A stretch of DNA of 64,000 bases from Naegleria gruberi. Taxonomy: Eukaryota. The stretch's first letter is position 1. Every line of letters starts with the position of its first letter. The translations under genes and the position numbers were made by a program. This document shows, piece by piece, positions 7 to 55,439 of the stretch. The stretch lies in NCBI GenBank assembly GCA_000004985.1, contig GG738853.1. One strand, written 5' to 3'. Under the pieces are notes generated by a model. That model did no database searches and was not told the origin of the DNA. It saw nothing but the letters and a program-made list of their open reading frames with translations.

Positions 7-3000
7 ATGTTCATTCCCTTCCTTCTTCAATTCTTTCTGTGTTGGTTTGTTGTGTGGTGTGTTCAGACTTTTCTCCCGCCACCCGACAAGACTCCAAACA
101 ACACTTCCTCTACTGTAAATAATAATTATCAACAACACAAAGAAAACAACACGAAGGAATTACATAGAAATGATGAAGGAAAGTTATTGTTTTTGTGTGA
201 GTTGAGAGAGACGAGGGAGGCTTTGCAAAAGGATTTGGAGGAATTAATTAATACTAATAATAATAATATTCATCATGATGATGATGATGACGATAATTTA
301 GTAATACAAAAAGAAGAGGATAATGTAGAATTAATATCTAAATTATCAAATAGTGATGAGAAGGAAATATTAATGGAATGTAAAGAAGAATTCGGATTGG
401 AGACAATTAGTAATGTAATTCAAGACGATCATCATTCTAGTCTTCAAAATACTACTACTGAAGACGAAGAAAAACTTGCCGAATTTATTCAGGCCATCAT
501 TCATGCTCATGACAGCAATAGACACCTACGAAACCAATATCATTCCATTGAATTGATCGGACAAGTGTGTAGGAATTATTTGGAAAGGAAGGAACACGAT
601 CAAGAAAGAAACAGTCTCACCAATTTACAATCATTGATTAAAAGAAGATTTAATCAACAGGTTATGAAGAGTGATTTGGAAAAACTAAACTTAGTGACGG
701 GTTTTTTGCATTCCAAGCAGATACAGTATCGTATTGCTGAGGAGATTGTCATGTTGAGAATGATTCAATCAGTCATTAGAGGAAATTCACAATATTGTGA
801 TTTCAAGAACCAAGTTAATTGTACTGTTATGGTGCAAAGTCGCTGGAAGTCTGCATATTTGAGAAGGGAGTTTGATGAGATGAAAGAAACTTGTCAAACA
901 GTTCAGAGTTTAACAAGAGGAAGAACTCTAAGAGCTCATTTCACACAATTTGTACAAAATGCTAGTTTTATTCAAGGTATTATCAGAAAATATCAAACTA
1001 ACAAGCTTGTCAAGGATAATTTGGCAATTATTGAAGTAATTCAATCTTGTATGATTGGTAGAAATGCAGTGAATTCTTTTGTAAACTCAAAAACTTGTAT
1101 TGAGGCTATTCAAGCATTTTTAATTGGAAAATTAGAAAGAATCAGAACTAAAGAATTGGAACATGAGAAATGTAAAGTGGATTGCACATCCACATTACAA
1201 GCCACAATGAGAGGAAATTTAGTGAAGAGAGAAAAGGAGTTTCAATTATCAGCTGCTGAATGCATTCAAGCAACTATTGTAGGTGCCTTAGAGAGAAAGT
1301 TACTTCATCAAGCTTTAACAGAGCAATCATTCTTAACCGATGTTACTTTAATGCAAAGTTTAATTAGAGGAAAAATCGAACAAGATGCAATTGAAAAATG
1401 TTGGAATTTAGTAATATCACTGCAGAGTTCTTTAAGAGGTTACAAGGAAATACAACAATTCGCAACCTCCTTGCAGTCTACGGAGATTATACAGTCTCTG
1501 GTTAGAGGGGCTTGTGAGAGGAGAAAATACTCAACTGCTGTTCAAAATATTGACACGTTGCAAACCTTTTTCAAAGCTCAAATAATCAGGAGCGAATTAT
1601 CCCAATACCAGAATTCTTCTCTTTTACTAGGAGCTTTCTTTGAGAAACATTCAGCCAAAAGGAAATTCAGAGAAGAGAAGCAATCATTGACAAATATTCA
1701 AGCGATATTGAAAGGACATCTTTCTAGAGAGAACTATGCAAGCTCGATATGCAGTGTAATAACTCTTCAAGTTAATCTCAGATCAGCCCTTACAGCCAGA
1801 GAGGTCAGCAAAGAAATGGACGAAATAACCACAATTCAGGCATTTCAAAGAGGTAGTATCTGCAGAAGAGAAGCATCCTCTAGTTTGGCATCAGTTTACT
1901 ACTTGGGAGGATCAATTATTGGAAAAATTGAACGTTCTACCTTTTTGAAATGTTTATCCTCGGTTTATGATATTCAAGCTTCAATAATTGGCTCTATTAA
2001 AAGAAAGAGATTGAAACATATATACGCTCTAGTAGAAAATATCTTAGCTCTAAGAGAAAGAAAGATTGAAGAAGAGCTTTTGCAAAGCAGTATTCAAAAA
2101 ATTACTATTCTCCAATCTATTGTTAGAAGAAACAATGTCCTTACACCTAACGTTGCATTAACAATACAATCGAATGTCAAGGGATATCTTATCAGAAGAG
2201 AAAAACATGAGGCAACGGAGAACATTAAGACTCTATCAGGCTTTCTTCAATCATCTCAATCAAGAAAGGTCCATCAAAGCAAATTGACACAAATCATTCA
2301 ATTGCAAGCAATTATTCGTGGAAATTTATCTAAAAAGTATAGAGATCAAAGGAAATCTGATCTATTATGTTTACAGGGCTTAATAAGAGGTTATTTGTGG
2401 AGAAATGAATCCTATTTGTATATTCCTAATACTAGCTTGGCAGTTGCTCCAATTTCTGTCACTGAAACCATCAAGAGAATATTTGAAGATGAAATCACAG
2501 AGGATTCATCAGATAGCAGTCCTACTGAAGTTATTCCTCCAACCAGTAGAAGAGTTCCATCGTTTGATGCAGTAACAGGAGGAAGATCTAAACTTTCCCA
2601 ACTTATTAAGGACAAAGTTACAAAGTCACCAGTTCTTGATCTTTCAAATATGAATATCGAATCTCTTCCACCAATAGGAACAGACTGTTATCACATAACG
2701 GATTTGAATCTCTCCAAAAATATGTTAGTAACCTTACCAGAGTGGTTCTGTGACAAGTTTCCGAACCTTAAAAGGTTAAATTTGAGTGGAAACAGATTTT
2801 TCGATACTAACAAGTTACTTTCAGAAAATTTATCACCAATTTCTCAAACTTTAACCTTCCTTGATTTGAGCAAGAATAGATTAGAGTACTTTGAATTGCA
2901 TTACATTGATGAAAATGATAACGTTATGACCACAAATTTCCCAAACCTAACTAGTTTGAATTTGAGTTATAACCAACTTTTGAATGTTTCCAGTGAAATG

Positions 3001-6000
3001 TTTGAGCTCGTCTCTTTAAACAAACTTGAAAATCTAGATCTCTCACATAACCAATTGCTTACTTTTCCTACTTTGAAATCTTCTGATCTATTAAAGAGAT
3101 GGAAGGATTTCAAGGTTATTAATTTGGAACACAATTCTTTCCTCCAATCTGAAATTGGTAAGATATTTTACATGTTCAAAAAGCGTCCAGACTTGTTGAA
3201 ACAATTGAAAGGTCAGCTCTATAAGCGAGGAGCTGCCAAGGAGAGTGAATCAAAGCAAGTAATGGATGATTTGGAAATTAATGCAGAGATTGGCGCTCTA
3301 ATGGAGGAGGAAACTCAAACGGAAATGACAGAAATGGCTTATCATGATCAATTCAAATCCAACCTCACCTCACTAGGAAGTATAAGAACTATCAACACTA
3401 ATAGTGACTATGATTCAGAAGATGATGAATTGATGACTGATAGATCTTTCTACAGCTCTACATCTAATTTATCTTCTGGAGGAATTAGTCCTAGATTTAG
3501 TTCTCCAGCTCTTCCAAGAAAGAACAGAGCTAATTCAGCATCTCCATTCTTGTTAGGTCAAACTCCAAAACATAGCAATAATACAGAAAGTACAGAAGGT
3601 TCACCAAGAACTGATCTGGAAAAAGATACCCCAGAACTAGATTCTCCAAAGACACCAAGATTAGAACTTTTAGGACAACCAAAGCCAATATCAATCAATG
3701 TTTTGACTCCAATATCAGGTCAGGCCAAATATAGCTTTATTCAAGATATTCCAACAGTGCAATCAACAAACACACCAACTACTTTCACTCCTCCTGATTA
3801 CGAAACTAAAACTGTAAATATTCCAAAGCTCAATTTGAACTCAGCTCCATCACCTAATACTCCAAACAATCAATTAACTTTGAATGCTGACAATTTCCTT
3901 TCCGCTCGTTCTGCGTCTTCTGATAATATGAGTACACCTAATTCTTCATTGGCAAGTCCTGTTGTTGAATCTGAAAATTTGATCTTTATTCTCAATACTG
4001 AAGCTCTCAAAGACTCTTTCAAAGATTTCTGCGAAAAGGAACACTCTGGAGAGTCTATCGAATTTTATGATGCTGTTTCTTCATTCAAGAAACTCTCTAA
4101 CCCAGTCGAAGTTAGAGATCTTGCCTGTAATATTTATGATTTATTCATAAATCCAATAGGAAAACACGCCCTTAATATAAATAAGAAACAAATAGATAAG
4201 GTAAAATTGGATCTATTCAAAGAGGATGGAACACTCACAGAAGTGGTTTCAACTGGAACTTTTGATTCTTTATTATATTATGTAAAAATGAATTTGATGG
4301 ATCCTCTGAAAAGATACAAGGCAACAGAGGAATTTAAAAAGTTGGATGAATTTGTCAAGATGCCACCTGTGGATATTCCACTACCAAGACCAAAGTGGGG
4401 CACAGCAAGACATCCACTTTTGAAGGTTGGAGAATCTAAAAAACAATTCAGAAGAAAGAAAATTCCATACCTTTCAACTCCAAAACCTTCCACAACCAAC
4501 AGTAATAACAGTACTAGTGAGGACAGAACACCTACTATTCAAGGAAGTATTTCTCCAATCCCAGAGAGAAAGAGTATCAATATCAAACAGATGAAGAATA
4601 GAATTAACAACCTTATGGAAATTTTACACTCCGAGAGAAAGTACCTCTCGTTTCTCATAGATTTATGGGAAATGTATTACATGCCTCTCGTGGATAACAA
4701 ATATTTGAAAGGAACTGAACAACCTGTTTCTAAAAAGAGAAAATCCACTTCTGAGCCACCAAGCACAAGCGAAGATTCGACTCTCAAAAGAAAAATCTCG
4801 TTCATTGATAAGATTTTCAACAAGCAAAAGAGTTCTTCCTCATTAAAGGATGAAGATAAGAGATTGGTCGGTAAGAAGGATGCTCTCGAGATGTTCCCAG
4901 CCAATTTATTTACCATTATCACTTTCAACAAGAGCTTTTTAGTTTCATTGGAGGAGAGATTTGCACTATACAGCGAGGAGCAAGAAGGTTCAATTATTCC
5001 AAGAATGTACAACATGATGATTGGAGATATATTCGAAAAGAGTATTCCATACTTTAGAATTTATGAAAATTATTTGGAAACTTATGAAAGTTGTATGAAC
5101 AAAATTAGACAAGTCAGAGCTCAAAACAAGGAATTTGACACCTGGATTAAGAAACGTAAATCTCACCCAAGAAGTAGAAATTTGGAAATTAATTCACTAC
5201 TTGTGGTTCCTGTTCAAAGAGTTGTCAGATACAAACTCTTAATTGAAAATCTTATTGAAACAACTGAGGAAGATCATCCAGACCATATTCACTTACTTAA
5301 AGCTCTGGATATGATTGTGGATGTTGCCAACCAACAAAACAATAATATTCGTCTTACTAATAACCGTGTCAAGGTGAGAATGTTGACACAACTCTTTGAT
5401 TTTTATGAACAATTGGGAGCTTCCTCAATTTCTTCAGGAGGTGTTGTAGAAGATAATTTATTAATTAGAGAAGGAGATGTAGAGATTCAAATAATGAAGG
5501 ATGAAAAATCCAGTCCAAAACGATCCTACAAGGTTCAGAGAGCATACCTCTTTACTAATGTCATTATATTTGTGGAAAAAACCAAACAAGTTGACAAACA
5601 AATTACACAAGAAGAAAATACCAAATCATCAGAAAGCTCACAAGGTGAAACAAATACCAATATGGAGTTGAGAAAATCCTCATCGTTCGTTATGAGAAAA
5701 TTAAAGAAGAGTGGATCTGAAAATAACCTTACCAACTCACCACCTATGCACAAGTCAATCAAGGTAGAGAAGAAGCATTTCCGTTTGGAGGATGCCTTTG
5801 TTTCAGGAGGATCAGCACTTACCATTGAAATTCGTTTCACAACACCATCCATTCACTCCCTCAAGTCATATTCAACCAATGATTTGACATCTGTTGGAAA
5901 TTTTAATATTGGATCAACAATCAACTCGGCACGTAGTGCAAAATCATCAAACAGTACAGAAGATATGCCAGATTCTGCCAGAAAACGATCTTTCAGTCTT

Positions 6001-6195
6001 TTTGGGAAATTGACAGGCAAACACAAGAAACAAACCAATATTTCCAAAGATCAAACAGTTGCAGTATTGAGTTTTGATTCCTCTGAATTGAAGAATGAAT
6101 GGCTTTTTGATTTGGAATCATCTATCAAGGAAGCCAAACAACGAGCAGCCAACAAGGCAAGCAAACTCCAAATTTCCTCATCCTTTACAAATTAA
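7..6195 (+). CDS. Large multidomain signalling protein, 5'-partial. It has about 25 IQ calmodulin-binding motifs (nt ~480-2400), leucine-rich repeats (~2600-3130), an RGS domain (~3981-4345), and a DH (RhoGEF) domain (~4590-5340) followed by a PH-like region (~5400-6120). Architecture is RGS-RhoGEF-like.
   Basis: Uninterrupted 2062-codon ORF open to the window edge, so the 5' end is probably cut off. Repeated IQxxRGxxxR-type motifs. LRR consensus LxxLxLSxNxL. RGS signature FxxFCxKExSxExIxFYxAV. DH signature (LMEILHSERKYLSFL...VVPVQRVVRYKLLIENL). Basic/hydrophobic PH-like C-terminus. The first ~30 codons are hydrophobic and may be UTR or intron rather than true N-terminus. Confidence 0.75.
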   Translation: MFIPFLLQFFLCWFVVWCVQTFLPPPDKTPNNTSSTVNNNYQQHKENNTKELHRNDEGKLLFLCELRETREALQKDLEELINTNNNNIHHDDDDDDNLVIQKEEDNVELISKLSNSDEKEILMECKEEFGLETISNVIQDDHHSSLQNTTTEDEEKLAEFIQAIIHAHDSNRHLRNQYHSIELIGQVCRNYLERKEHDQERNSLTNLQSLIKRRFNQQVMKSDLEKLNLVTGFLHSKQIQYRIAEEIVMLRMIQSVIRGNSQYCDFKNQVNCTVMVQSRWKSAYLRREFDEMKETCQTVQSLTRGRTLRAHFTQFVQNASFIQGIIRKYQTNKLVKDNLAIIEVIQSCMIGRNAVNSFVNSKTCIEAIQAFLIGKLERIRTKELEHEKCKVDCTSTLQATMRGNLVKREKEFQLSAAECIQATIVGALERKLLHQALTEQSFLTDVTLMQSLIRGKIEQDAIEKCWNLVISLQSSLRGYKEIQQFATSLQSTEIIQSLVRGACERRKYSTAVQNIDTLQTFFKAQIIRSELSQYQNSSLLLGAFFEKHSAKRKFREEKQSLTNIQAILKGHLSRENYASSICSVITLQVNLRSALTAREVSKEMDEITTIQAFQRGSICRREASSSLASVYYLGGSIIGKIERSTFLKCLSSVYDIQASIIGSIKRKRLKHIYALVENILALRERKIEEELLQSSIQKITILQSIVRRNNVLTPNVALTIQSNVKGYLIRREKHEATENIKTLSGFLQSSQSRKVHQSKLTQIIQLQAIIRGNLSKKYRDQRKSDLLCLQGLIRGYLWRNESYLYIPNTSLAVAPISVTETIKRIFEDEITEDSSDSSPTEVIPPTSRRVPSFDAVTGGRSKLSQLIKDKVTKSPVLDLSNMNIESLPPIGTDCYHITDLNLSKNMLVTLPEWFCDKFPNLKRLNLSGNRFFDTNKLLSENLSPISQTLTFLDLSKNRLEYFELHYIDENDNVMTTNFPNLTSLNLSYNQLLNVSSEMFELVSLNKLENLDLSHNQLLTFPTLKSSDLLKRWKDFKVINLEHNSFLQSEIGKIFYMFKKRPDLLKQLKGQLYKRGAAKESESKQVMDDLEINAEIGALMEEETQTEMTEMAYHDQFKSNLTSLGSIRTINTNSDYDSEDDELMTDRSFYSSTSNLSSGGISPRFSSPALPRKNRANSASPFLLGQTPKHSNNTESTEGSPRTDLEKDTPELDSPKTPRLELLGQPKPISINVLTPISGQAKYSFIQDIPTVQSTNTPTTFTPPDYETKTVNIPKLNLNSAPSPNTPNNQLTLNADNFLSARSASSDNMSTPNSSLASPVVESENLIFILNTEALKDSFKDFCEKEHSGESIEFYDAVSSFKKLSNPVEVRDLACNIYDLFINPIGKHALNINKKQIDKVKLDLFKEDGTLTEVVSTGTFDSLLYYVKMNLMDPLKRYKATEEFKKLDEFVKMPPVDIPLPRPKWGTARHPLLKVGESKKQFRRKKIPYLSTPKPSTTNSNNSTSEDRTPTIQGSISPIPERKSINIKQMKNRINNLMEILHSERKYLSFLIDLWEMYYMPLVDNKYLKGTEQPVSKKRKSTSEPPSTSEDSTLKRKISFIDKIFNKQKSSSSLKDEDKRLVGKKDALEMFPANLFTIITFNKSFLVSLEERFALYSEEQEGSIIPRMYNMMIGDIFEKSIPYFRIYENYLETYESCMNKIRQVRAQNKEFDTWIKKRKSHPRSRNLEINSLLVVPVQRVVRYKLLIENLIETTEEDHPDHIHLLKALDMIVDVANQQNNNIRLTNNRVKVRMLTQLFDFYEQLGASSISSGGVVEDNLLIREGDVEIQIMKDEKSSPKRSYKVQRAYLFTNVIIFVEKTKQVDKQITQEENTKSSESSQGETNTNMELRKSSSFVMRKLKKSGSENNLTNSPPMHKSIKVEKKHFRLEDAFVSGGSALTIEIRFTTPSIHSLKSYSTNDLTSVGNFNIGSTINSARSAKSSNSTEDMPDSARKRSFSLFGKLTGKHKKQTNISKDQTVAVLSFDSSELKNEWLFDLESSIKEAKQRAANKASKLQISSSFTN

Positions 6196-18714: not shown

Positions 18715-20243
18715 ATGGGAGCTTTTGCATCAAAGAAAGATAAAACAGATAACCCTAAAAAACCCCGAAACTCTTCAAATTCTCAACCAACAAATTCCTC
18801 AACAAGTGGTGTCAACAACAATACATCAACTTCATCTTTATCATCTAATTCTTCTACTGGACCTGTGGTAAAGAATTCACTTTCTGTTTTATTGTTGGGA
18901 ACGGGTGAAACTGGTAGGTTTTATATCTCATAGTTTAGTTTGAATAATTAATTGTTTCGTATAAATTTATTCGAAATTAGGTAAATCAACATTATTTAAA
19001 CAACTTGAATTGATTAATGGAGTGGGTATCATTAAAGAAAATGAAAAATCAATGTGGGCTACTCTAATTCATGGCAATGTAATTTCTGACATGAAAACTT
19101 TGATTGGAATTGTTGAGGAAATGGATGTTCAAGAAGTTTCGGATGAAATGCACGAATTAATTCAAGAAATATTAGAATTACCTGATCAAAATGTTACTAT
19201 TAATGAAGAATTATGTGAAAAGTTGAAGAAACTGTGGAATTATGAAGTAGTTAGGGAAGCTTATGATAATAGAGATCAAGCTTTGGATTCTGCTGAATAG
19301 TAAGTTTCTAATAATTTATAGTAATTTAGACGATTTGGGTTTTTAACATTTTCATAACATGAATTTCTCTAATTGTTGTTGACCTTTCGAATAATTATTC
19401 TTTTACAGTCTCTATAATAATATTGATAGAATTGCCAAGCCAGATTACTCACCAACAGTTGATGATGTTCTTCATTGTCGTGTAAAGACACTTGGTGTGC
19501 ATCATGTTGAACTCATGATGGATGGAAACTTTAAATTTAAATTGATTGATGTTGGTAAGTAGTTTCTATAAATGGATTTTGAGAATATTTATTGATTTGT
19601 TTACAATAATTTTTCTATAATTATTATTATAATATTTATAGGTGGTCAACGTTCTGGTAAGTTTTGATGATTTTTCTTGGTAGAATTTAACATTTAAAGA
19701 ACGAAGAAAGTGGCTTGAACGTAAGTTTTTTTATTCGAATTGGATATTTATAGTAATTTAATATTGGAAATGAATAATTGAATGATTGGAATATTGAAAT
19801 AATTTCGAATTGGATGAAAAATAGTCATGTCAGAAGTTGATGCTGTCATTTTCATGACATCTTTAGCTGAATTTGATCAAGAATGTTATGAGGAAAAAGG
19901 ATTTAAACGTGTTGTTGAATCTTTGGAAACATTTGAAAAGGTCATTAACAACAAACTCTTCCAAAAAGTTCCATTCATTCTCATGTTAAATAAGCGTGAC
20001 TTATTCGAGAGGAAGATTGCAAAGAAGAGTTTCAAGAAATATTTCCCAAATTATACAGGTGATGAAAAGAATCCCCAACAATGTATTGATTTCATTTCGA
20101 AAATGTTTTTGGGTAAATGTAAGGAACGATCAACTGATACCATTCTAGTTCAACCTCATTGTGCTATCAGTAAGGAAGAAACAGAACAAATGCTGCAACA
20201 TGCAAAGAACTTTGTAATAGGTCAATACTCAAAGAAGAAGTAG
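18715..20243 (+). CDS. Heterotrimeric G-protein alpha subunit, 6 exons: join(18715..18913, 18981..19299, 19409..19554, 19642..19656, 19700..19720, 19825..20243), about 372 aa.
   Basis: N-myristoylation-type MGAFASK. G1 LLLGTGETGKST is split by intron 1. Switch I is RVKTLGV. G3 DVGGQRSERRKW is encoded across 15-nt and 21-nt micro-exons. G4 NKRD. G5-like region is HCAIS. All introns are GTAAGT/GTAGGT...AG, and frames were checked against the ORF track. Confidence 0.85.
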
Positions 20244-23748: not shown

Positions 23749-24663
23749 ATGAATATGGAGGAAGTATTGAATTTTTCAGATTCGTTTGAAATTATTAGAA
23801 AAATTGGTTCGGGAAGAAAAAGTCAAATTTTTGAAGGAATTTATGTGAAATCAAATCTTGATGAAAAATGTGTCGTTAAGATTTTTACAAATTACAACAA
23901 TTCAGAAGAGAGCAAGATTAAAAGACAAGTTAAAATACTTGAAAAACTGGGTGATGGACCGAATATTGTAAAATTGAAAGATGTGATTTGGGATTTACCT
24001 AACAAGGCAATTGTTTTGGAATTTTGTGAAAATTGCAGCTTGAATTCATGTGGAAAGTTGACCGATATGGAAATTAGATATTATATGAGGGAATTATTGA
24101 AAGGTGTGGAGTATTGTCATTCTATGAGAGTGATTCATAGAAATATAAAACCAAAAAGTGTACTAATTGACCAAAAGAATAAGAAATTGACATTAATCAG
24201 TTGGGGTTTAGCTGAATTTTATCATGATGGAAGAGAATTGAATACCAGATTGTCAACTAGATATTTCAAAGCTCCAGAATTATTATTGAACGTGAAAAAT
24301 TATGATTATTCGATTGATATGTGGAATTTGGGATGTGTTTTTGCAAAATTGATTTTTGGAAAGGAACCATTCTCTCCTGGAAGAGATAATTTTGATCAAA
24401 TGGTGAAAATGATAAAAGTGCTAGGAAGTGAGCAATTATTTGAATATTTGGAAAGATACTCAATTGAATTGCCTTCCTATTTGGAAGGATTGAAATCATA
24501 TGAAAAACAGGAATGGAGAAATTTTGTAAAAGATGAAGAATTTGTGAATGAGCTAGCTCTTGATTTTTTAGATAAATTACTAAAATATGATCCTAAAGAA
24601 AGAATGACGGCAAAGGAGGCACTGCATCATCCCTATTTTGCATCATTCCCCAATGATGACTAA
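23749..24663 (+). CDS. Casein kinase II alpha-like protein lacking catalytic residues (predicted pseudokinase).
   Basis: Collinear with CK2-alpha over the whole kinase domain (CHSM..H..IKP....ID......L..WGLAEFYH, DYS.DMW.LGC, HPYF). HRD is replaced by HRN (nt ~24136-24144). DWG is replaced by SWG (~24199-24207). The alpha-C Glu is Gln. The Gly-loop reads GSGRKS instead of GRGKYS. The N-terminal about 35-aa CK2 segment is missing. Confidence 0.8.
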   Translation: MNMEEVLNFSDSFEIIRKIGSGRKSQIFEGIYVKSNLDEKCVVKIFTNYNNSEESKIKRQVKILEKLGDGPNIVKLKDVIWDLPNKAIVLEFCENCSLNSCGKLTDMEIRYYMRELLKGVEYCHSMRVIHRNIKPKSVLIDQKNKKLTLISWGLAEFYHDGRELNTRLSTRYFKAPELLLNVKNYDYSIDMWNLGCVFAKLIFGKEPFSPGRDNFDQMVKMIKVLGSEQLFEYLERYSIELPSYLEGLKSYEKQEWRNFVKDEEFVNELALDFLDKLLKYDPKERMTAKEALHHPYFASFPNDD

Positions 24664-24810: not shown

Positions 24811-25908
24811 TTGACTTGTTGTAAACTCGACCTTCAATTTCAATCTTTAAAAAAAATGCGCAAAAAACGAAGACCAGCCAAACCAACTCGATTTATTGCA
24901 AAAACACTAATATATGCCGATCATGACGACAGTGATGATGATGCTGATGATAATAACATTTTCATTTCTAACCAATTCCTCAACGATGATGTGATTTATG
25001 AAATTTTATCATTCGACAATGATTTTAAATTTATTGTAATGAATTGTGCACTGGTTTCAAAACAGTGGTTTCGAGTCATTTTGGAGAGATTGAAACAACT
25101 TGCAGTTCGAATTGATATTGGGAAAATGTCAAGGGTGCAAGGTCAATTTTTGGAAAATATTGCAAGTGTGAAAGCACTTAATGCGATTAATCATTTAATA
25201 CAGTATCGTGATGCCTTTAAGTTGATGAAAGGATTGACTACATTTGATATTTCTTACACTTATGTTCATGATCGAGAGGCCAAAATTATTAGTGAAATGA
25301 CACAATTGACTTCTCTTAATGTTAGTAATAGTATTAGGATTAAGAAAAGTATTGCATATTTTAGAGAAATGAATAATTTGACTTGTTTGAACATTGGCAA
25401 TAATGGTATTGGAGTTGAATGTGCCAAACACGTTAGTGAAATGAAACAATTGACCATTCTTCATATTTGTGGAAATGGTATTAAGTTTGAAGGGGCTAAA
25501 TTTATTAGTGAACTGCAACAGTTGACCAAACTTGATGTTAGTAGCAATAATATTGGAGAGCAAGGGGCTAAATATATTAGTCAATTAAAACAATTGACTA
25601 ACCTTGATATTTATTCAAATCGAATAGGTGCGCAAGGGGCCAAACATATTAGCGAAATGAAACAGTTGACAAGACTTAACATTTCTTACAATGATATCAA
25701 TGTTGAAGGTGCCAAATATATTAGTGAAATGAAACAATTGATTAATCTTAATATTACCAAAAATAATATTGGTGATGAAGGTGCTAGACACATTAGTGGA
25801 ATGAATCAATTGACTAATCTTTTTATTGGGAACAATAATATTAGCAATGCTGGATTTCAAAACATTTGTGTGTTCTTGGTTGATACATTCGTATTTCTAA
25901 GCGAATAA
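24811..25908 (+). CDS. F-box-like / leucine-rich repeat (RNI-type) protein.
   Basis: N-terminal F-box-like segment (VIYEILSFDNDFKFIVMNCALVSKQWFRVI). About 9 tandem 24-aa LRRs with the form MKQLTxLNIxxNxIGxEGAKxISE. Confidence 0.65.
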   Translation: MTCCKLDLQFQSLKKMRKKRRPAKPTRFIAKTLIYADHDDSDDDADDNNIFISNQFLNDDVIYEILSFDNDFKFIVMNCALVSKQWFRVILERLKQLAVRIDIGKMSRVQGQFLENIASVKALNAINHLIQYRDAFKLMKGLTTFDISYTYVHDREAKIISEMTQLTSLNVSNSIRIKKSIAYFREMNNLTCLNIGNNGIGVECAKHVSEMKQLTILHICGNGIKFEGAKFISELQQLTKLDVSSNNIGEQGAKYISQLKQLTNLDIYSNRIGAQGAKHISEMKQLTRLNISYNDINVEGAKYISEMKQLINLNITKNNIGDEGARHISGMNQLTNLFIGNNNISNAGFQNICVFLVDTFVFLSE

Positions 25909-25971: not shown

Positions 25972-28900
25972 CTAATTCTTTGTTGGTGTGCTCTCAGTAG
26001 GGTTACTTTCAGAATTGGTTGCGCTCTTATTGGATGGATTGTGGTTGACTGCCTTGAGCTGATTCTCAATGAATTGAGTGTGTTTGATAGTGACCTTTCT
26101 CGATTTGCTATCTCCAATAATACTCTTCAGTAAGCTACTCTTCTTTTCGCTGACTTGTGGATTCTTATTTGCTTCAGCATTGGCTTTAACTTTCATCAAT
26201 TGCTCCATCAGCTCACTATTCACTTGACCTGGAGCAAGAGGTGAATTATTGTTCTTCTCAGTGCCATTGTTGCTTGTGGAAGATCCACCGCTGGTCGAAG
26301 TTGATGAAGTTGGTGCCTTGAAAGATAATTCTTCACCATATTCACATCCAAATACATGTTTGAAAGCTTCTTTTTCCTCGTGAAGTAACTTGAGAGCAGT
26401 TTTATCCTTTTGTTGCAAATCTTGCCACAATGTTGTAATCTTGTCACGGACTTGAACCTTTTCTTCCTTAATTACGTCAAGACGTTTTTCTTTATCTTGC
26501 TTTTCCTGTTCGAGGTCCGCAATTTCACGTTGGAGAGCAGCCAACAATTCCTTCTTTTGTTGAATCTCATTGCTCACCTGAACAGTTCTTACTTGCAAAA
26601 GCATTTGTTCCTGTTGGATTTGCTGATGGAACTTGAGATTTTCTTTAGCTTGGGTATGCACTGCAGCTCTTTCCTTTCCCAATTTGTACATTTCTGAAGA
26701 ATTTTGAAGACTAAGTCCTCTGTTGGCGTATATTTTAACATTGCAAATGTCAGAAATACAATTACCAAGTGATTCTTTCCATTCATCTCTGTCTCCAGTG
26801 GTACTTGTTGTGAGAATGTATTCATATTGAGAACCTTTAGTAATGACACGAATTGGAATGTCACACTCATCAATAACATCATAAAATCCTCTTTTTGGTG
26901 GAGGCACAGGTAAATTCCTTCCTCCACTGGTTGTGATGTTTAGATTGTTGCTATTGTTCCCAAAGAAGGTATCAGTATCAATAAAGTGGAAGAAAATAAA
27001 GTGTAAATTCTTTCCGACAGTTAATGTTAGTTGATGATATTTAGATTTGGTTGAATCTGAATTGGTTGGGGTATTTGATTGTTCCTTCTTCTTTCCAAAC
27101 ATGGTTGCCTTTCGAGTAAAGGATTGGAAAAGTGATGAAGAACCTTCATCAGATTCATTCTTTTCCTCAAGTAATACCAACATGTCAGTAAATTGATAAA
27201 TTGTAAATCTTCCCTCATTGTATTGTGGTTTCAGATTCTTTGAACCAGCCATCTGAGCCAATACATTAGAGAATGTATCACCTTGTTTTCCAGGAACAGG
27301 AGGTGGTAAAACTCTCTTACCTGTACTCGATACTGTAGCTGCAGTAGAAGTTGTTTTTGTTGGAACAGATGGTAAACTTCTTGGAGTCACGGATCCTGAG
27401 TTTTTGGAGTCATTACTTGGTGGTGTTGGCAGTGCTACGGAATTTCTTTGTGACTTCACTTGTCTATACTTGACATGGAAGGAGGCCTTTCGCAGGAACT
27501 TTCTGTTTGGTTGGACAAAACCAGGATAAATTGGTTCGATCATTCCATAAATTTCGTACATGTATCTCACATTATCAAAGTTTCTCTTTTGTTCATTAAT
27601 GTAGGAGGCAATCTTTTCAATTTCATTCACAACTTTTTGTAAGTTTTCAAATTCGGTATGTTCTTCAGGAGTATTAGACAAAATTTCAGAGAGCAACATT
27701 TTGTATCTTGGAATTCTTTGAATTGGTAAAATGAGGAAACTACAGAAATCTGATTTGATTCCCTTTTGCATTTGATAGCACTCTGTTAAAAATTCCTTAA
27801 ATTTCTTATTGGATTTTTTCATCTTGTCAAACATTTCAGTTGCTCTATCGTGGTTATTAATATAGGTTGTGTAAACTTTCAAAAATGGAACAAGATGACC
27901 GAATGGTTTACCGATAGAATCATAAATTCTGTATGATGAAGGTTGATTCTTCTTTTTAAGATTTGGGTCATCTTTTCTCTTGATGACAAACCCAACAGTT
28001 CTTGGACTAGTTAATTCACCAGAACCATTTGGAGTGGATGTTGAGTTGTTTGAAACTTGAGAGGATATGCTGGAGGTTGGAGATGGGAGAGATTCTTCTT
28101 CCTTGATTTCAATTTTGACTTCAGGATTTGCCTTTTCCAAATCATTCAATAATGTTTGATTAATGTTTGAAATTTGGTTAATGTTGGCAAACAGGACTTG
28201 AATCTCTGATTGACCTTTAAAAACACCTTTTCCGTGGTCTCTATTTTCAATTAGTGGTTGATAGTACAAATTAAGGAAGGACTTGAGATTTTGAACGTAG
28301 GTCTTTTCTGTCTCGATGGTCTCCTTAATCAACTCTTGACGTTTTCTACCCTTTTTAAGAGATGGATCTCTACGTATAAAATTGAAGAATCTAACACGTG
28401 TGAATAATTGTGGAATACGTTCTCCCAAAATTGAAATAGCCTTATCCTTGTCAAGTGTCGCCTTTGGTGTGGAAACAGTACTAATCTCGTCATCCTCTAC
28501 TACAGAAGATGATTCAGTAGTTTCGTCATCATCAAAATTAATAATTGATGGTGACTGTAATGTTTCCTCAAGATCTAGCTTTGGAATAATAGGTGAATCT
28601 AAACTATTCGAAACTCCAAAACTTCCATTACTGCTTATACTTTCATGAATAGTTGGAGATGAGCTGCTATTATCTGTACTGTCCATATCAGAAGTAGATC
28701 TCTTTCTAAAATGACTATCCGAAACTGAACCTAAAGCTGTCAAATTACTCAAACTAAATTTTGTTTCAAAATTCTCCAAACTATCAGCACTTGTTATTCT
28801 TGAATGAAGATTATTTGGGCTGTCAATCGATAGAATGACCTTTTCTTCATTACCACTTTCTGATTCAGCAAGAACATTCGAATCCAAATTACTTTCTTGG

Positions 28901-29103
28901 ATTTCATCATGATCAATATTATCTGTTGATGTGGATGATGGTGGTGAAGTATCATTATTAGCCTCTATTGTTGGTGGTGATGTTACACTGTTACCTCCTT
29001 TCCCATACATCAAGGAAGACAATTTTGGAGGAGGTTTAGGTGGTTGATTACTATACACCCTTGATGGTTTCATTGGTGGAGGTGTAGGAGGAAGATTAGA
29101 CAT
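25972..29103 (-). CDS. RhoGEF (DH domain) protein with PH-like region and C-terminal coiled coil (1043 aa).
   Basis: DH core QELIKETIETEKTYVQNLKSFLNLYYQPL...ILPIQRIPRYKMLLSEIL. Downstream heptad-rich segment (QQIQQEQMLLQ...LEQEKQDKEKRLD). The N-terminus is Pro-rich. Confidence 0.75.
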   Translation of the reverse strand: MSNLPPTPPPMKPSRVYSNQPPKPPPKLSSLMYGKGGNSVTSPPTIEANNDTSPPSSTSTDNIDHDEIQESNLDSNVLAESESGNEEKVILSIDSPNNLHSRITSADSLENFETKFSLSNLTALGSVSDSHFRKRSTSDMDSTDNSSSSPTIHESISSNGSFGVSNSLDSPIIPKLDLEETLQSPSIINFDDDETTESSSVVEDDEISTVSTPKATLDKDKAISILGERIPQLFTRVRFFNFIRRDPSLKKGRKRQELIKETIETEKTYVQNLKSFLNLYYQPLIENRDHGKGVFKGQSEIQVLFANINQISNINQTLLNDLEKANPEVKIEIKEEESLPSPTSSISSQVSNNSTSTPNGSGELTSPRTVGFVIKRKDDPNLKKKNQPSSYRIYDSIGKPFGHLVPFLKVYTTYINNHDRATEMFDKMKKSNKKFKEFLTECYQMQKGIKSDFCSFLILPIQRIPRYKMLLSEILSNTPEEHTEFENLQKVVNEIEKIASYINEQKRNFDNVRYMYEIYGMIEPIYPGFVQPNRKFLRKASFHVKYRQVKSQRNSVALPTPPSNDSKNSGSVTPRSLPSVPTKTTSTAATVSSTGKRVLPPPVPGKQGDTFSNVLAQMAGSKNLKPQYNEGRFTIYQFTDMLVLLEEKNESDEGSSSLFQSFTRKATMFGKKKEQSNTPTNSDSTKSKYHQLTLTVGKNLHFIFFHFIDTDTFFGNNSNNLNITTSGGRNLPVPPPKRGFYDVIDECDIPIRVITKGSQYEYILTTSTTGDRDEWKESLGNCISDICNVKIYANRGLSLQNSSEMYKLGKERAAVHTQAKENLKFHQQIQQEQMLLQVRTVQVSNEIQQKKELLAALQREIADLEQEKQDKEKRLDVIKEEKVQVRDKITTLWQDLQQKDKTALKLLHEEKEAFKHVFGCEYGEELSFKAPTSSTSTSGGSSTSNNGTEKNNNSPLAPGQVNSELMEQLMKVKANAEANKNPQVSEKKSSLLKSIIGDSKSRKVTIKHTQFIENQLKAVNHNPSNKSATNSESNPTESTPTKN

Positions 29104-38150: not shown

Positions 38151-39284
38151 TTAATTTTTTTGAAATAATTTGGAATTGATAAAATTCAACAATTCAGAGC
38201 TAGGTTCTTGTTCACTGAAATTCACCACCTTGGATTTGGAATTTTCCAAATCGGTATGTACAATTTGGTCAACATTAAGATGACATTTACCCAACTGAGC
38301 TACCAAAATATCCATCATGTGAACATATTGTTCATTCGAAATTTCTTCCAATTTCAATTCATTGGCCAAACTTGTCATTTTAACATGATGAAGTCCACAA
38401 GCTACAATATCACTCCTGAAAGATTGTAAATCTTGACTACTCAAATTCAGATTCATTGCCACGCCATGCATTGATACAAATCTCGATAATTGCAATCCAA
38501 TACTTGCTAACTTTCTCTTCTTTTCTTGTGAATTATTCTCATCAGACTGTTCACAAAGTTTCATACTACTGCTAATATAAATACCCATCTCTGATTCTCC
38601 TCCAACATTCAATTCAATTCTTTCACCCTTTTCAATATTCTCCACTTGGCCCTTCACATCTTTCAGTAAATCATTTGAAAATTGTTGAAGAAATGGAACA
38701 CACAGAGAACGAAGCATAAACTCATCTGAAAACCATTTGATATTCTTTTGGAGAAATGAACTATTCTCCAAATCAAAAAGTGGATACAAAACTAATTGAC
38801 CAGGACAGTGAAAGGTAATTCCACCTCCACGACCAATTTTGTGAATGGCCAATTGTCTTGGATTGTGAAGAATGTGATTTTTGGAAAAGGTTTCGTCAAA
38901 TCTTAACTTTCCAATAGTGAAACAAGATTCTGAATGTTCTGTTGCAATCATGTATTGTCTGTGTTGTAAATTATTGTTTTGATGTTCTTGTTTCAAATTC
39001 CTCAAATAATCGAATAGAAATTGTTGAAATTGTAAACTTTGTTCATATTTCGAATTGGATAAGAGAATTAAACAAAGAGAATCGTATCCTTCCTTTCCTT
39101 TTGTATTTCTAGTTTGTGCAGTATTGAATAATTCATTTTCTTTCTTTTCCATCCACTTTCCAAAACCTTCCGATATTGAATAGTTACATTTCTGATAAAC
39201 ATTCTTCCCAACATTCAATAATCCTCCACATTTATTACCAGAAATCAATCCAATCCTTCTCCTTCCACAACTCAATCGAAGCAT
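38151..39284 (-). CDS. lipB: Lipoyl(octanoyl) transferase (LipB family), probably mitochondrial, with a C-terminal extension.
   Basis: LipB active-site region IGRGGGITFHCPGQLVLYPLFDL. C-terminal KLASIGLQLSRFVSMHGVAMNLN matches the conserved Lys region. The N-terminus is basic, like a presequence. Confidence 0.7.
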   Translation of the reverse strand: MLRLSCGRRRIGLISGNKCGGLLNVGKNVYQKCNYSISEGFGKWMEKKENELFNTAQTRNTKGKEGYDSLCLILLSNSKYEQSLQFQQFLFDYLRNLKQEHQNNNLQHRQYMIATEHSESCFTIGKLRFDETFSKNHILHNPRQLAIHKIGRGGGITFHCPGQLVLYPLFDLENSSFLQKNIKWFSDEFMLRSLCVPFLQQFSNDLLKDVKGQVENIEKGERIELNVGGESEMGIYISSSMKLCEQSDENNSQEKKRKLASIGLQLSRFVSMHGVAMNLNLSSQDLQSFRSDIVACGLHHVKMTSLANELKLEEISNEQYVHMMDILVAQLGKCHLNVDQIVHTDLENSKSKVVNFSEQEPSSELLNFINSKLFQKN

Positions 39285-39787
39285 TTTCTATCAAAATATC
39301 CCACAACTCAACTATTAATAATTCAATTCTCAGTATTTACCCAACAGTTGCTGCTAATCAACCATAATACTGCACACTACACACCAGCAATTGCTGAGAA
39401 TCCAAATAGCCACCACATACCTATTGAATGTTCTCTTTTTGATTGAACAATTGCTTCAATTTATCCAAATTTCCGTATTAAATTAGGTTATTTGTAAACA
39501 ACATCTCCATTTTTTCACCGTAAAACTGAGATTTCTCACCAACAAATCAAAAAACGACAATTTTTTCCCTTACTGTTTCTCTCTTACACTGCGTTTGTGT
39601 TAAAAACAGCACACAAAATGATTGAATTCTCAATATTATCAACAATGCAGAATTTCGTTCCATCACCAAATTGTTGCTTGTTTGCTGAGGTTGATTGTTG
39701 TTATTGTTGAGGATTCGAGTAGTGGATTGTGTGAGGGTTCAATTGTGTGGGCGTGGATAATTAATTAGCAGAGTGGAAAAAAAAGAG
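39285..39787. promoter_or_regulatory. About 500-bp bidirectional intergenic region between divergent lipB and lipA.
   Basis: Head-to-head gene arrangement. No element could be called from sequence alone. Confidence 0.3.
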
Positions 39788-41245
39788 ATGAAGAGGAGCA
39801 GTGGGATAATAGACAAGATTGTGAAGGCAGGTTTGAAGAGGCAATTTTATTCGAAAGGTACTCATTGTGAGCAGTTGATGAAGATGAGTGGACGAAAGGG
39901 AGTGGATTTTCATTTGAGTAATTTGGGAGGAGGAATTTTGCATCAATGTAGTACTGCTGTTGGAGTTTCGAATAATGTTGAAGAAATGAATCAAACTTGG
40001 CAAGAACGAAGAAATATCAAGAGAATGAATCGATTGAAAGAAAAGAAAGTGGAAGAAACTCAACATTCTGAAGCACTTTTACAAGAAAGAGACGAAATGG
40101 TTAAAAAATCATTAGAAATATTACAATCCCGAATGGACGAAATGGAAAACTTTCAGATAATTCGTTCATTTCTTCCAAAATCTATATCAGATGCTGATTT
40201 ACTCACTAAATACTATCCAGCACTCAAAGATTCGGATAATTCTATTCGATATGATGGTAAACTAAAGAATGTAGATACCATTCGTGCAAAACCAAGATGG
40301 TTACTTTCGAATATAATTCCAAAGAATGAAGAATCAAATTCCAATTACAATCGTCTCAGAAACACATTAAGCGGACTCAAACTAAACACTGTCTGTGTAG
40401 AAGCCAAATGTCCAAACATTGGAGAATGTTGGGGAGGAAAATCCCAAACTAAACATCAAGATTCGAATATAAATATTCTAGACGAATCGAACAACCATCA
40501 AATGGCCACAGCAACCATCATGCTAATGGGTGATACTTGCACTCGTGGTTGCAGATTCTGCTCAGTCAAGACAAGCAAATGTCCTCCACCCTTAGATCCT
40601 TCAGAACCTGAAAACACCGCAGATGCCATCCATAAATGGGGTTTAGAATATGTTGTCTTGACATCTGTCGATCGAGATGATTTGACAGATGGAGGAGCTC
40701 AACATTTTTATGAAACTGTTCAAAAGATTAAGGAAAAAAATCCTAAAATTTTGGTGGAATGCTTAACTGGTGATTTTCAAGGAGATTTGGAATGTATTCG
40801 AAAGATGAGTTTATCTGGAATGGATGTTTATGCGCATAATGTTGAAACTGTGGAAGAGTTGACTCCACAAGTGAGAGATTACAGAGCTACCTTTCGTCAA
40901 TCATTGAAAGTTTTGAAACTTGTAAAGGAATTTAATCCGAAACTCATTACAAAAAGTTCAATAATGGTTGGCTTGGGAGAAAGTGATCAACAAATATTCG
41001 AAACCATGTGGGAATTGAAGAATGCAGGTGTAGATTGCATTACCATTGGTCAATACCTTCGTCCAACGAAAATGCACATGAAAGTTTTGGAATATTTCAC
41101 ACCAAAGAGATTCGAATTGTTACAAGAAATTGGAGAGAAAGTTTTTGGATTTAAATATGTGGCAAGTGGACCAATGGTTCGTTCAAGTTATAGAGCTGGA
41201 GAATTGTTTTTGAAGAATCTCATTTTGAAAGAACAAGTTGTTTAA
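39788..41245 (+). CDS. Lipoyl synthase (LipA/LIAS, radical SAM).
   Basis: N-terminal auxiliary-cluster motif [12 protein letters not shown]. Radical-SAM motif CTRGCRFC. Conserved [19 protein letters not shown] and C-terminal SSYRAGE. The track start at 39773 is GTG; first ATG is at 39788. Confidence 0.9.
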
Positions 41246-53173: not shown

Positions 53174-53404
53174 AATCATTGAATCATTCTCAATATTACC
53201 TTCACTGCCACACACCACATCTACTTGTATCATACATTAAATATTTCAACAATTTACAATATTACCAAGCAGCTGTCATCTTTTTTAACCTATTTCCCAT
53301 TTGGCATTCCATTACTCCATCAAATTTTCCACATCTTGCTCTAAAGTTTACAAAAATCACCAAATTTGCCTTCGAACCGTACACACAACTCACGGACAAA
53401 AAAA

Positions 53405-55439
53405 ATGAAGAGAAAGATCTTGGGAAGAATCCTCTGCCAACCAACACAAGAGGCCAATAAACAACAACAGCTGATGAACCTGTTGTTGATCAATAATAAG
53501 AATCATCATCAGATGAAGATGAAAAATACATTAACAGAAAAAAGACAATTTTCGACACAACAAATTGTTGAATCTTCCTTTGGTCATCATCATCAATTTC
53601 TTGTTGATAACAAGCCTTTGATTGTTGATCAACAGGTGAGTCATATCAAGGGATCGACAAGGGAACCACTCATTCATGAAACCTTGTTTGAATTGTTTGA
53701 GAAACGTGTCTATGAGATGGATTCTCATCCATTGTTGCAAGTTAGTGGTTCCGAACATAATTTAAATCAGGATCAGACCTTTTCATGGAGAGAGGTTCAT
53801 GAGCAGAGTTTAAAACTTGCTAATGCTCTTCATAGATTGGGATATAAGAAGGAGGATCGTATTGGAATTTGGATGCCTAATTCACATGAATGGTCAATTG
53901 TGTTGATGGCAGCTGCCAAGTTGGGTTTGATTGTTGTAAATGTTAATCCTGCTTATAGAAAGCATGAATTGCAACATGCTTTGAATTTGGTACAATGCAA
54001 GGGTTTGATTATTGTTCCAGAATATAAGGGAACTAATTATGTTCAAATGTTATATGATTTGTGTCCTGGATTGGATAGAAATGTGAATCAAAATGGCGGA
54101 AAACATGCTTATTCAGATGAAATGCAAGTGCCAACTGTTGAATCTGAAGCATTACCTCATTTGAGACATATTTTCTACTGTTCTCCATCTAGAGCTTTCT
54201 TCCCTGGAATGATTGATTTTACAAATGAATTGTTGAACATGTCCATTCCAAAAGGATTGACTCATCAACAATGGATGAAAGCCAAGCATAATTGTAATGA
54301 TACTTTAAAGTAAGTAGTGCAGATCTTAAAGTGTGAAATTTAACATTTCCAAAAATTTAATTAGTATTCAATTTACATCTGGAACAACTGGATTACCAAA
54401 GGGAGCTGCCCTTTCACATTTTAACATTGTAAATAATTCATATTTTGTTGGAAAGGCAATGAATTTGCAGACTGGAGTTGACAAACTGGCCTTGTGTGTT
54501 CCATTTTACCATTGTTTTGGTTCAAATTTGGGATTCTTGGCCTTCTCCCTTCATGGTTGTGGAATTGTCTTGTCAAGCTTTGGATTTGATCCTGAAGCCA
54601 CTCTCAGAGCAGTTCACAAATACAAATGCACAGCTCTTCATGGCGTTCCAACAATGTTTATTGCTGAATTGGAACATCCAAACTTTAAGAAATATGACTT
54701 GTCATCCCTTCGTACAGGTATTGTGGCTGGTGCTTTGTGTCCAATGCCACTCATGAAAAGATGTATCAATGAAATGAATTTGAGAGAATTGATTAATGTT
54801 TATGGTATGACTGAGACATCTCCTTACTCATTCAATACACATATTAATGATAGTTTGGAAGTTCGTACCACCTCAGTTGGTAGAATCCATCCTCATGTTG
54901 AAGCAAGAGTTGTGGATCCAGAAACTGGAAAGGTTGTCCCATTTGGAACTCAAGGTGAATTGCAAGTGAGAGGATATTTGGTTATGAAATATTATTGGGA
55001 TCAACCAGAAGCCACTAAGAAAGTCATTGAAAATGGATGGATGAAGACTGGTGATATTGCCGTATTCAGAACCGATGAAAATGGACCATACTGTAGCATT
55101 GAAGGAAGAATTAAGGATATTATCATTAGAGGAGGTGAAAATATTGTACCACGTGAAATTGAGAATTTCCTCTACATGAATCCAAATATTAAGGATGTTG
55201 CAATTGTTGGAGTTCCTGATGAGAAATACGGAGAACAAATTTGTGCTTGTATTATATTGAAGAGTGGAAAATCATTAACTGAAGAAGAATTGAGAGCTTT
55301 CTGTCAAGGACAAATAGCTCACTACAAGATTCCAAAATATGTCATGTTTATGGATGAATTCCCAATGACTGTTACAGGAAAGATTCAAAAGTTTGTATTG
55401 CGTGATTGGGCAACAGACAAATTAGGATTGAAAAAGTAA
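53405..55439 (+). CDS. Acyl-CoA synthetase / AMP-binding enzyme (medium-chain, ACSF2-like), 2 exons: join(53405..54309, 54365..55439), about 659 aa.
   Basis: The AMP-binding motif (N)IQFTSGTTGLPKGAALSH is reconstructed across a 55-nt intron. Motifs YGMTE, TGD..., GRIKDIIIRGGENI and a C-terminal Lys region. Confidence 0.85.

Follow-up and report, generated by a model that had tools for sequence, protein, structure and literature searches.

The closest described relative of the Naegleria gruberi gene reported here is the RGS-RhoGEF of Naegleria fowleri, a predicted Rho guanine nucleotide exchange factor (RhoGEF) that carries a Gα-binding RGS domain. Bosch, Jeck & Siderovski (J Biol Chem 2022) described 'a single RGS-RhoGEF' in that amoeba, composed of leucine-rich repeats (LRRs), a canonical RGS domain and a DH-PH tandem, and presented it as a 'candidate' Gα effector (PMC9283941). 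The N. fowleri RGS domain binds the AlF4- forms of Gα2 and Gα3 with dissociation constants of 2.4 µM and 3.3 µM, respectively, and speeds GTP hydrolysis on both subunits (PMC9283941). The switch-I G-to-S 'RGS-insensitivity' mutation abolishes this interaction; the interface is thus a canonical RGS/Gα interface, like that of EhRGS-RhoGEF from Entamoeba histolytica and unlike that of the mammalian RH-RhoGEFs (p115-RhoGEF/ARHGEF1, PDZ-RhoGEF/ARHGEF11 and LARG/ARHGEF12), which bind Gα12/13 in an RGS-insensitivity-resistant mode (PMC9283941). EhRGS-RhoGEF (PDB 4GOU; about 500 residues) likewise joins a canonical RGS box to a DH-PH tandem and is both an effector of Gα and a GTPase-activating protein (GAP) for it, and the mammalian proteins also place a Gα-binding RGS-fold module N-terminal to DH-PH. 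Here we describe the gene occupying positions 7 to 6195 of contig GG738853.1, within the 64,000-nucleotide stretch of N. gruberi DNA that was analysed (hereafter the window), whose product strings together, from the N to the C terminus, a hydrophobic segment, 28 IQ-like units, seven LRRs, a canonical RGS box, a DH domain and a PH domain.

The gene is one unbroken open reading frame (ORF) of 2062 codons on the plus strand (6189 nucleotides, free of stops), and its product matches XP_002680493.1 of N. gruberi NEG-M from end to end with 100% identity, an entry annotated as "rho guanine nucleotide exchange factor" and listing RGS, IQ, RhoGEF and LRR Pfam hits. By sequence, it is the N. gruberi copy of a predicted G-protein-regulated Rho activator, and it had been annotated before. 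We put at roughly 0.7 the probability of our overall reading, in which the ORF encodes the orthologue of the N. fowleri RGS-RhoGEF and its product, a Rho/Rac exchange factor of the Dbl family, binds activated Gα through the canonical RGS box. Both proteins have LRRs upstream, a canonical RGS box and then DH-PH, whereas the published N. fowleri protein consists of LRR-RGS-DH-PH alone and lacks the IQ array. What is new is the full-length architecture; taken alone, the gene is the already annotated counterpart of a protein known from N. fowleri. Neither of the other described systems has this architecture: EhRGS-RhoGEF lacks the hydrophobic N terminus, the IQ array and the LRRs, and the mammalian RH-RhoGEFs lack an IQ array, LRRs and any membrane anchor, while the N. 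gruberi protein has no PDZ domain. The initial annotation of this DNA, made from its letters alone, had proposed the dictyostelid RGS and gxc families for comparison, which proved off target, the protein being exactly that of N. gruberi, a heterolobosean.

The RGS box and the DH-PH tandem

A one-way, exhaustive HMMER scan queried with the last 773 residues recovered the family and gave as its top match N. fowleri CAG4709038.1 (P0011 in our protein set; 2079 residues; E=9e-251); word-indexed homologue searches had overlooked this protein and returned mostly ASPM and FGD proteins. BLASTP aligns P0011 collinearly from the IQ array through the C terminus, over about 2000 residues, with identities of 67% in the LRR block, 46.5% in the RGS domain and 59-79% in the PH core. 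Table S1 of the N. fowleri study lists the gene as NF0047690 (AmoebaDB), with residues 590-719 cloned using primers TCGGAAAATCTTGTGTCTG and TGTTTTCATTTGCTCATC (PMC9283941). The encoded peptides, SENLVS and, from the reverse-strand primer, DEQMKT, map to residues 1335 and 1459-1464 of P0011 and span exactly 130 residues; P0011 is therefore the published RGS-RhoGEF gene. The published model begins about 745 residues downstream of the long one, whose Met744 lies inside the last IQ units, and this late start explains why the published drawing has no IQ array. The one candidate Gα effector to have been characterised in Naegleria is, in other words, depicted from a gene model that lacks the N-terminal part.

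A Pfam scan of the ORF product, proposed initially as a check on the domain assignments, places both RGS and DH above their gathering scores. The RGS box matches PF00615 at residues 1328-1430 with 44.7 bits (cut-off 23.9; E=2.1e-11). Searched alone against the PDB with phmmer, it retrieves RGS5, 9, 4, 10, 16, 7, 2, 18, 17, 8 and 14, with GRK3 as a marginal hit, and the RH domains of p115, LARG and PDZ-RhoGEF are absent from these matches at E<=1; the family profile matches RGS10, RGS16, RGS2 and RGS18 in the PDB at about 1e-9. When the box is aligned by HMMER with RGS4, RGS5 and RGS9, 'SGES' stands opposite 'SEEN' of RGS4, so that the equivalents of S85 and E87 are kept, and 'LNIN' stands opposite 'VNLD', which retains the equivalent of the catalytic-interface residue Asn128. 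At the position of N88 both this box and that of the GAP-active N. fowleri orthologue have Ser, and the N. fowleri box also has the same Gα-contact residues; the D163 and R167 equivalents ('DPLKRY') were read by eye only. The AlphaFold2 (AF2) model of the box is helical, with predicted local distance difference test scores (pLDDT) of 77-90.

In the mammalian RH-RhoGEFs the corresponding module is the divergent rgRGS/RH domain (Pfam RGS-like), reported as a holozoan innovation (PMC3971589), whereas the N. gruberi box is canonical. No RGS-like (RH) family appears in the Pfam scan at E<=0.1, and this, together with the RGS-only PDB hits, rules out membership of the RH/rgRGS class. The gene had been said to follow the logic of the metazoan G12/13-regulated RhoGEFs; this holds for function, the N. 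fowleri RGS domain binding Gα and acting on it as a GAP, but not for the domain itself. Since the box is a canonical RGS rather than an RH domain, the likeness is one of functional convergence and not of membership. The DH-PH tandem of the model does resemble those of the mammalian RH-RhoGEFs in structure, with Foldseek template modelling (TM) scores of 0.56-0.62 normalised to the target.

The DH domain matches RhoGEF PF00621 at residues 1537-1778 with 105.3 bits (cut-off 27.6; E=5.5e-30), and its matches in the PDB include intersectin, FARP2, P-Rex1 and PDZ-RhoGEF. In an alignment of the C-terminal region of five family members (A1), on which the profile search and the AF2 model are based, the invariant columns comprise E218, S222, E223, R224 and Y226 in core motif CR1 (ExxERxY) and P415, V416, Q417, R418, R421 and Y422 in CR3 (PxQRxxRYxLL; here PVQRxxRY). 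These columns align to FARP2 and intersectin and, the core motifs being intact, catalytic competence is plausible. A disordered insert between helix 1 and the remaining DH domain holds a short helix, KRKISFIDKIFNK, whose N. fowleri counterpart, KRKLSFVDKLFNK, is nearly identical; the insert could be a regulatory or phosphorylation element.

Four of the five named domains (RhoGEF/DH, RGS, IQ and LRR) are supported by the Pfam scan of the ORF product, which gave no match to PH. This domain was probably missed because of its two low-complexity inserts, which occur in both Naegleria orthologues and are absent from three more distant relatives, an N. fowleri paralogue (P0013) and two environmental proteins (P0014 and P0017). 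By profile and by model, the PH domain is nevertheless real. The A1 profile runs through both the DH and the PH domains of FARP2 (4gzu, E=5.7e-27), including the conserved Trp of the C-terminal helix; the AF2 model continues past the DH helices with seven strands and a C-terminal helix, broken by the two inserts; and Foldseek aligns about 540 model columns with DH/PH tandem structures. The order IQ array-LRR-RGS-DH-PH, as first read from the sequence, thus stands, four of its members by Pfam and the fifth by profile, AF2 and Foldseek.

In the mechanism that we favour, GTP-bound Gα would dock onto the RGS box. Docking would end the Gα signal through GAP action, for which the biochemistry comes from the N. 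fowleri orthologue only, and it would also recruit or de-repress the DH-PH tandem, leading to GTP loading of a Rho-family protein and to actin remodelling, by analogy with EhRGS-RhoGEF and with p115 and LARG. The N-terminal hydrophobic helix would anchor the protein in a membrane with its bulk in the cytosol, the helix of about 650 residues bearing the 28 IQ units would possibly serve as a Ca2+-sensitive stalk or scaffold, and the seven LRRs would offer a further protein-binding surface.

Three considerations tell against this scheme: all of the RGS biochemistry was obtained with the N. fowleri orthologue, the step from Gα to DH activation in Naegleria is argued by analogy, and GEF activity is predicted, as it is for the N. 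fowleri and Entamoeba proteins. In an alternative reading, unlikely in our judgement and still one to be taken seriously, the RGS box would act as a GAP only and hence as a negative regulator, without any relay to DH-PH, the two activities being merely co-scaffolded. When overexpressed in Entamoeba, EhRGS-RhoGEF behaves like a dominant-negative Gα, and no Rho substrate was found for it; the Naegleria study goes no further than a 'candidate' effector (PMC9283941); and in the AF2 model a disordered linker of about 70 residues parts RGS from DH. On the other hand, Rac is activated in S2 cells that co-express EhRGS-RhoGEF, active Gα and RacC, and P0011, P0014, P0017 and P0154, the last of these from an independent assembly, all keep the order RGS-linker-DH-PH. 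We therefore retain the coupled RGS-RhoGEF as the preferred reading.

The IQ array and the N-terminal segment

Laid out on [ILVM]Q cores, residues 158-810 resolve into 28 units in a 23-residue register, interrupted by three spacings of 29 residues and one of 18; the hydrophobic-Gln core [ILVM]Q is present in 22 of them, and the 'about 25 IQ motifs' counted initially were thus a fair estimate. Summed over the array, the match to IQ PF00612 reaches 50.8 bits (E=6.6e-14) and lies above the cut-off; no single unit passes the per-domain Pfam threshold. Residue autocorrelation at lags 23 and 46 is 0.151 and 0.152, against shuffle maxima of 0.112 and 0.108 in two shuffle sets. The N. fowleri orthologue retains the 23/46 periodicity (0.128 versus a shuffle maximum of 0.105), and the array is also kept as a periodic pattern in the paralogue P0013 (lag-23 autocorrelation of 0.155). 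Such maintenance of the 23-residue period across species implies selection on the translated product. Self-built IQ and RGS hidden Markov models (HMMs), which are circular for the query, served for unit counts and for locating domains in relatives, against shuffled controls; the secondary 'domains' that the custom RGS HMM reports within IQ regions are noise.

The top non-self database matches to the N-terminal half are ASPM-type IQ proteins, those of Naegleria included. A spacing of 23 residues is that of light-chain-binding necks and, judging from motif and periodicity, the array probably binds many calmodulin or light-chain molecules. ASPM arrays and the necks of unconventional myosins are likewise long tandems of IQ motifs with a spacing of about 23 residues, and the ASPM-like protein P0003 of Naegleria shows the same lag-23 periodicity; here, unlike in ASPM and the myosins, the array is placed between a hydrophobic N terminus and a signalling module. 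Membership of either family was considered and rejected. Pfam finds neither an ASH (PF15780) nor a CH (PF00307) domain in the N. gruberi protein, PF15780 being present in P0003 and in P0004, and there is no myosin Pfam match, the array being preceded by just 157 low-complexity residues. Dictyostelium GxcDD and vertebrate obscurin also join an IQ motif to a Dbl-type RhoGEF; they have one or few IQ motifs in another domain context and are not known to carry an RGS box. Literature searches on IQ motifs and RhoGEFs in Naegleria turned up no account of the array, nor was a published description of a ~28-unit IQ array or of the probable N-terminal anchor found.

The hydrophobic segment that opens the N. 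gruberi protein has a Kyte-Doolittle mean of 2.24 over 19 residues and is the sole such segment in the protein. The frame is open as far as base 1, and the RefSeq model takes the ATG at position 7 as its start. Seven relatives (P0013, P0014, P0017, P0035, P0093, P0140 and P0154) likewise show one strongly hydrophobic segment among their first ~50 residues, and none of them has a second one, except for a borderline stretch at residue 243 of P0014. Among 149 DH-domain representatives, an N-terminal hydrophobic segment is found in 7 of the 13 that contain LRRs and in 1 of the 136 others (Fisher p=4.7e-8). In P0013, whose N terminus reads MTPSLLYLILTIVIASIGAVWFFLK, as well as in P0014 and P0017, the flank C-terminal to the segment is basic, which is consistent with a cytosolic location of the remainder of the protein. 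Two gene models of the paralogue, P0013 and P0160, differ by 173 residues at the N terminus, the hydrophobic segment lying at residue 5 in the shorter and at residue 211 in the longer. Because the segment recurs among the LRR-containing relatives, translation probably does begin at this ATG, and the segment probably acts as a signal-anchor that holds the protein at a membrane. The gene had been thought truncated at the start of the window; with the RefSeq start at position 7, relatives that share the hydrophobic beginning and an N. fowleri orthologue whose model has no additional N-terminal domain, it is probably complete.

Several observations count against this account of the N-terminal half. 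The strict pattern [FILVM]QxxxRGxxx[RK] is found in just 8 of the 28 IQ units, and the array is only 23% identical between N. gruberi and N. fowleri, the lowest value of all regions; calmodulin binding thus stays a prediction. The charges around the N. gruberi segment give no clear orientation. A crude codon score rates the first 90 nucleotides (30 codons) as non-coding, and these codons are pyrimidine-rich, with a splice-acceptor-like ttcag at positions 59-63, so that positions 1-63 could be a 5' leader or an intron acceptor; the low score may instead reflect the F/L/W/C/V-rich composition of a membrane helix. The long N. fowleri model, unlike the N. gruberi protein, starts without the hydrophobic segment and without the 130-residue spacer, 83 residues of which have no N. 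fowleri counterpart; it may have missed a first exon.

These points invite the reading that the IQ-like repeats are a bare helical spacer or some other docking site, and that the hydrophobic N terminus is in-frame 5' untranslated or intron sequence. We consider it doubtful. In its favour, most units are degenerate and none stands on its own in Pfam, the codon score of the first 30 codons is that of non-coding DNA and a cag follows them, and the N. fowleri model starts otherwise; the summed IQ score, far over the cut-off, the rank of ASPM arrays as best outside matches, a spacing generally known from light-chain-binding necks and the skewed occurrence of N-terminal hydrophobic segments (7/13 against 1/136) all speak for a genuine IQ array behind a genuine anchor. 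It is highly improbable that the long ORF joins two units, the expressed form being a short LRR-RGS-DH-PH protein like NF0047690 and the hydrophobic segment and IQ region being separate, untranslated or misannotated: the published N. fowleri model does start near Met744, at the end of the array, and the IQ region is the least conserved, but the 6189-nucleotide frame is open at 34% G+C, the independent N. fowleri model is collinear with it, P0013, P0014, P0017 and P0154 carry the N-terminal parts on one polypeptide, and the 23-residue periodicity is kept across species. An additional short isoform from an internal start is possible.

The related concern, raised at the outset, that the ORF is an artefact of two fused genes also lost its force, the frame being continuous and collinear with independent models. 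We give such a fusion low weight, an open frame of this length in AT-rich DNA (G+C around the ORF of ~34-35%) not being a chance expectation. It is unlikely also because islands of the linker are conserved in N. fowleri, because the same order of parts is met on single polypeptides in the orthologue, in the paralogue and in environmental assemblies of independent origin, and because the 23-residue period is kept even where the sequence has diverged.

Relatives and origin of the RGS-DH coupling

The N. fowleri paralogue P0013 (CAG4719658.1; the other model, P0160, is XP_044566820.1) has the order hydrophobic segment-IQ-LRR-DH-PH without an RGS box, so that the anchored IQ-LRR-RhoGEF scaffold comes in versions that have an RGS box and versions that lack it. 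The environmental relatives P0014 and P0017 have LRR-RGS-DH-PH preceded by IQ-like N-terminal halves, P0154 has hydrophobic segment-IQ-LRR-RGS-DH, and P0035, P0093 and P0140 have LRR-DH-PH. Together with the IQ array, the probable N-terminal anchor appears to mark out a broader family of anchored LRR-(RGS)-RhoGEFs.

The RGS-RhoGEFs of Naegleria and Entamoeba have been suggested to share an origin (PMC9283941). Our comparisons make an independent RGS-DH fusion as plausible as a shared origin; they are suggestive, being similarity searches rather than a phylogeny. By its DH domain the protein is closest to LRR-DH-PH proteins of the Heterolobosea that lack an RGS box (Willaertia magna KAL9650016.1, P0013 and Acrasis kona proteins), and 4GOU shows no special sequence affinity, being neither among the RGS-only hits at E<=1 nor among the top 60 profile hits. 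In structure, Foldseek places the model against 4gou at E=1.7e-9, rank 37, behind many metazoan DH/PH tandems. These data are compatible with the RGS box having been inserted into, or lost from, a lineage-specific family of anchored LRR-RhoGEFs, and the full-length architecture is relevant to the question of a single or a repeated origin of RGS-RhoGEF coupling among eukaryotes.

Tentatively, we propose that these proteins form an undescribed and probably heterolobosean family, in which a signal-anchor and a calmodulin- or light-chain-bearing stalk would carry an LRR-(RGS)-DH-PH head, integrating Ca2+ and Gα·GTP and setting the site of Rho activation and its distance from the membrane. With its 28 IQ units and ~650 residues, the N. 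gruberi stalk would span ~100 nm if fully helical. Few amoebae outside the Amorphea crawl fast by means of actin, and Naegleria is one of them; N. fowleri infection is nearly always lethal. If the protein is anchored and bears ~28 calmodulin-type sites, then the constructs, the localisation work and the models of Gα/Ca2+-to-Rho signalling will need revising.

Feature coordinates and genomic neighbourhood

The coordinates of the features are collected in Table 1. In the LRR block, LRR_8 and LRR_4 Pfam matches cover residues ~877-1024, and repeat parsing yields seven repeats over residues ~873-1050. The Pfam scan found no family in the linker that follows it.

Table 1. Features of the RGS-RhoGEF gene and selected neighbours in the window (residue numbers refer to the ORF product)
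Feature	Residues	Window positions	Strand	Basis or remark
Complete single-exon ORF	2062 in total	7..6195	+	XP_002680493.1 / EFC47749.1 / UniProt D2V618
Hydrophobic segment MFIPFLLQFFLCWFVVWCVQTFL	1-23	7..75	+	Putative signal-anchor/transmembrane helix; Kyte-Doolittle
Low-complexity N/T/D/E-rich spacer	24-157	76..477	+	Poorly conserved
IQ array, 28 units, 23-residue period	158-810	478..2436	+	Pfam, core layout, autocorrelation
Leucine-rich repeat block, 7 repeats	~866-1050	2602..3156	+	Pfam, repeat parsing
S/T/P-rich linker	1051-1320	3157..3966	+	Short conserved islands; N. fowleri identity 43.5%
Canonical RGS box	1321-1451	3967..4359	+	Pfam, PDB sequence hits, AF2
DH domain	1526-1797	4582..5397	+	Pfam, PDB hits, AF2; N. 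fowleri identity 77-84%
Disordered insert in DH	1568-1620	4708-4866	+	Between helix 1 and remaining DH
PH domain and C-terminal helical tail	1819-~2045 (PH)	5461..6189	+	Profile, AF2, Foldseek
Two S/T/N/K-rich disordered PH inserts	1860-1918, 1947-2014	5584-5760, 5845-6048	+	AF2
Gα gene, multi-exon		18715-20243	+	Pfam G-alpha on two exons, E=3e-11 and 3e-36
Protein kinase		23749-24663		Just upstream of the LRR protein and second RhoGEF
Stand-alone LRR protein		24811-25908	+	Tail-to-tail with second RhoGEF
Second RhoGEF, 1043-residue ORF		25972-29103	-	DH only by Pfam
PLD, 1975 residues		55502-61429	-	Window protein

The neighbourhood had been called signalling-rich, and a Gα gene, a second RhoGEF and a PLD are indeed present, but as evidence of a functional link this is weak: unrelated genes lie between and around them (for EGF-like, DEAD-box helicase and Myb proteins, an ABCG transporter, a protein kinase, an LRR protein, a GH20 hexosaminidase, a lipoate ligase, a lipoyl synthase, a CitMHS transporter and an acyl-CoA-synthetase-like enzyme), and the Dbl and Gα families of Naegleria are very large (PMC5499878; PMC9283941), with 13 Gα subunits in N. 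fowleri. One detail alone hints at more than chance: in AmoebaDB, the N. fowleri 'Gα12' gene (NF0047740) comes five identifiers after that of the RGS-RhoGEF (NF0047690), in agreement with the spacing of 5-6 genes in the window. Going by identifiers alone, this suggests that the RGS-RhoGEF/Gα synteny is conserved between N. gruberi and N. fowleri, which bears on synteny and not on function, and it makes the Gα of the window a putative orthologue of N. fowleri Gα12.

This Gα starts with MG, a possible myristoylation site, followed by an S/T/N-rich extension of ~55 residues; its P-loop is unusual (LLLGTGETG), and its switch I reads RVKTLG, with Leu where Gαi1 has the RGS-contacting T182. Elsewhere in the window, a lipoate-protein ligase with an LplA/B catalytic domain (38151-39284, minus strand) and a lipoyl synthase with radical SAM and LIAS_N domains (39773-41245, plus strand) form a head-to-head, divergent pair of functionally related genes. 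Further along, the AMP-binding (acyl-CoA synthetase-like) enzyme is split over two plus-strand ORFs (53366-54313 and 54333-55439) that match consecutive parts of the Pfam profile, presumably owing to a short intron or a frameshift.

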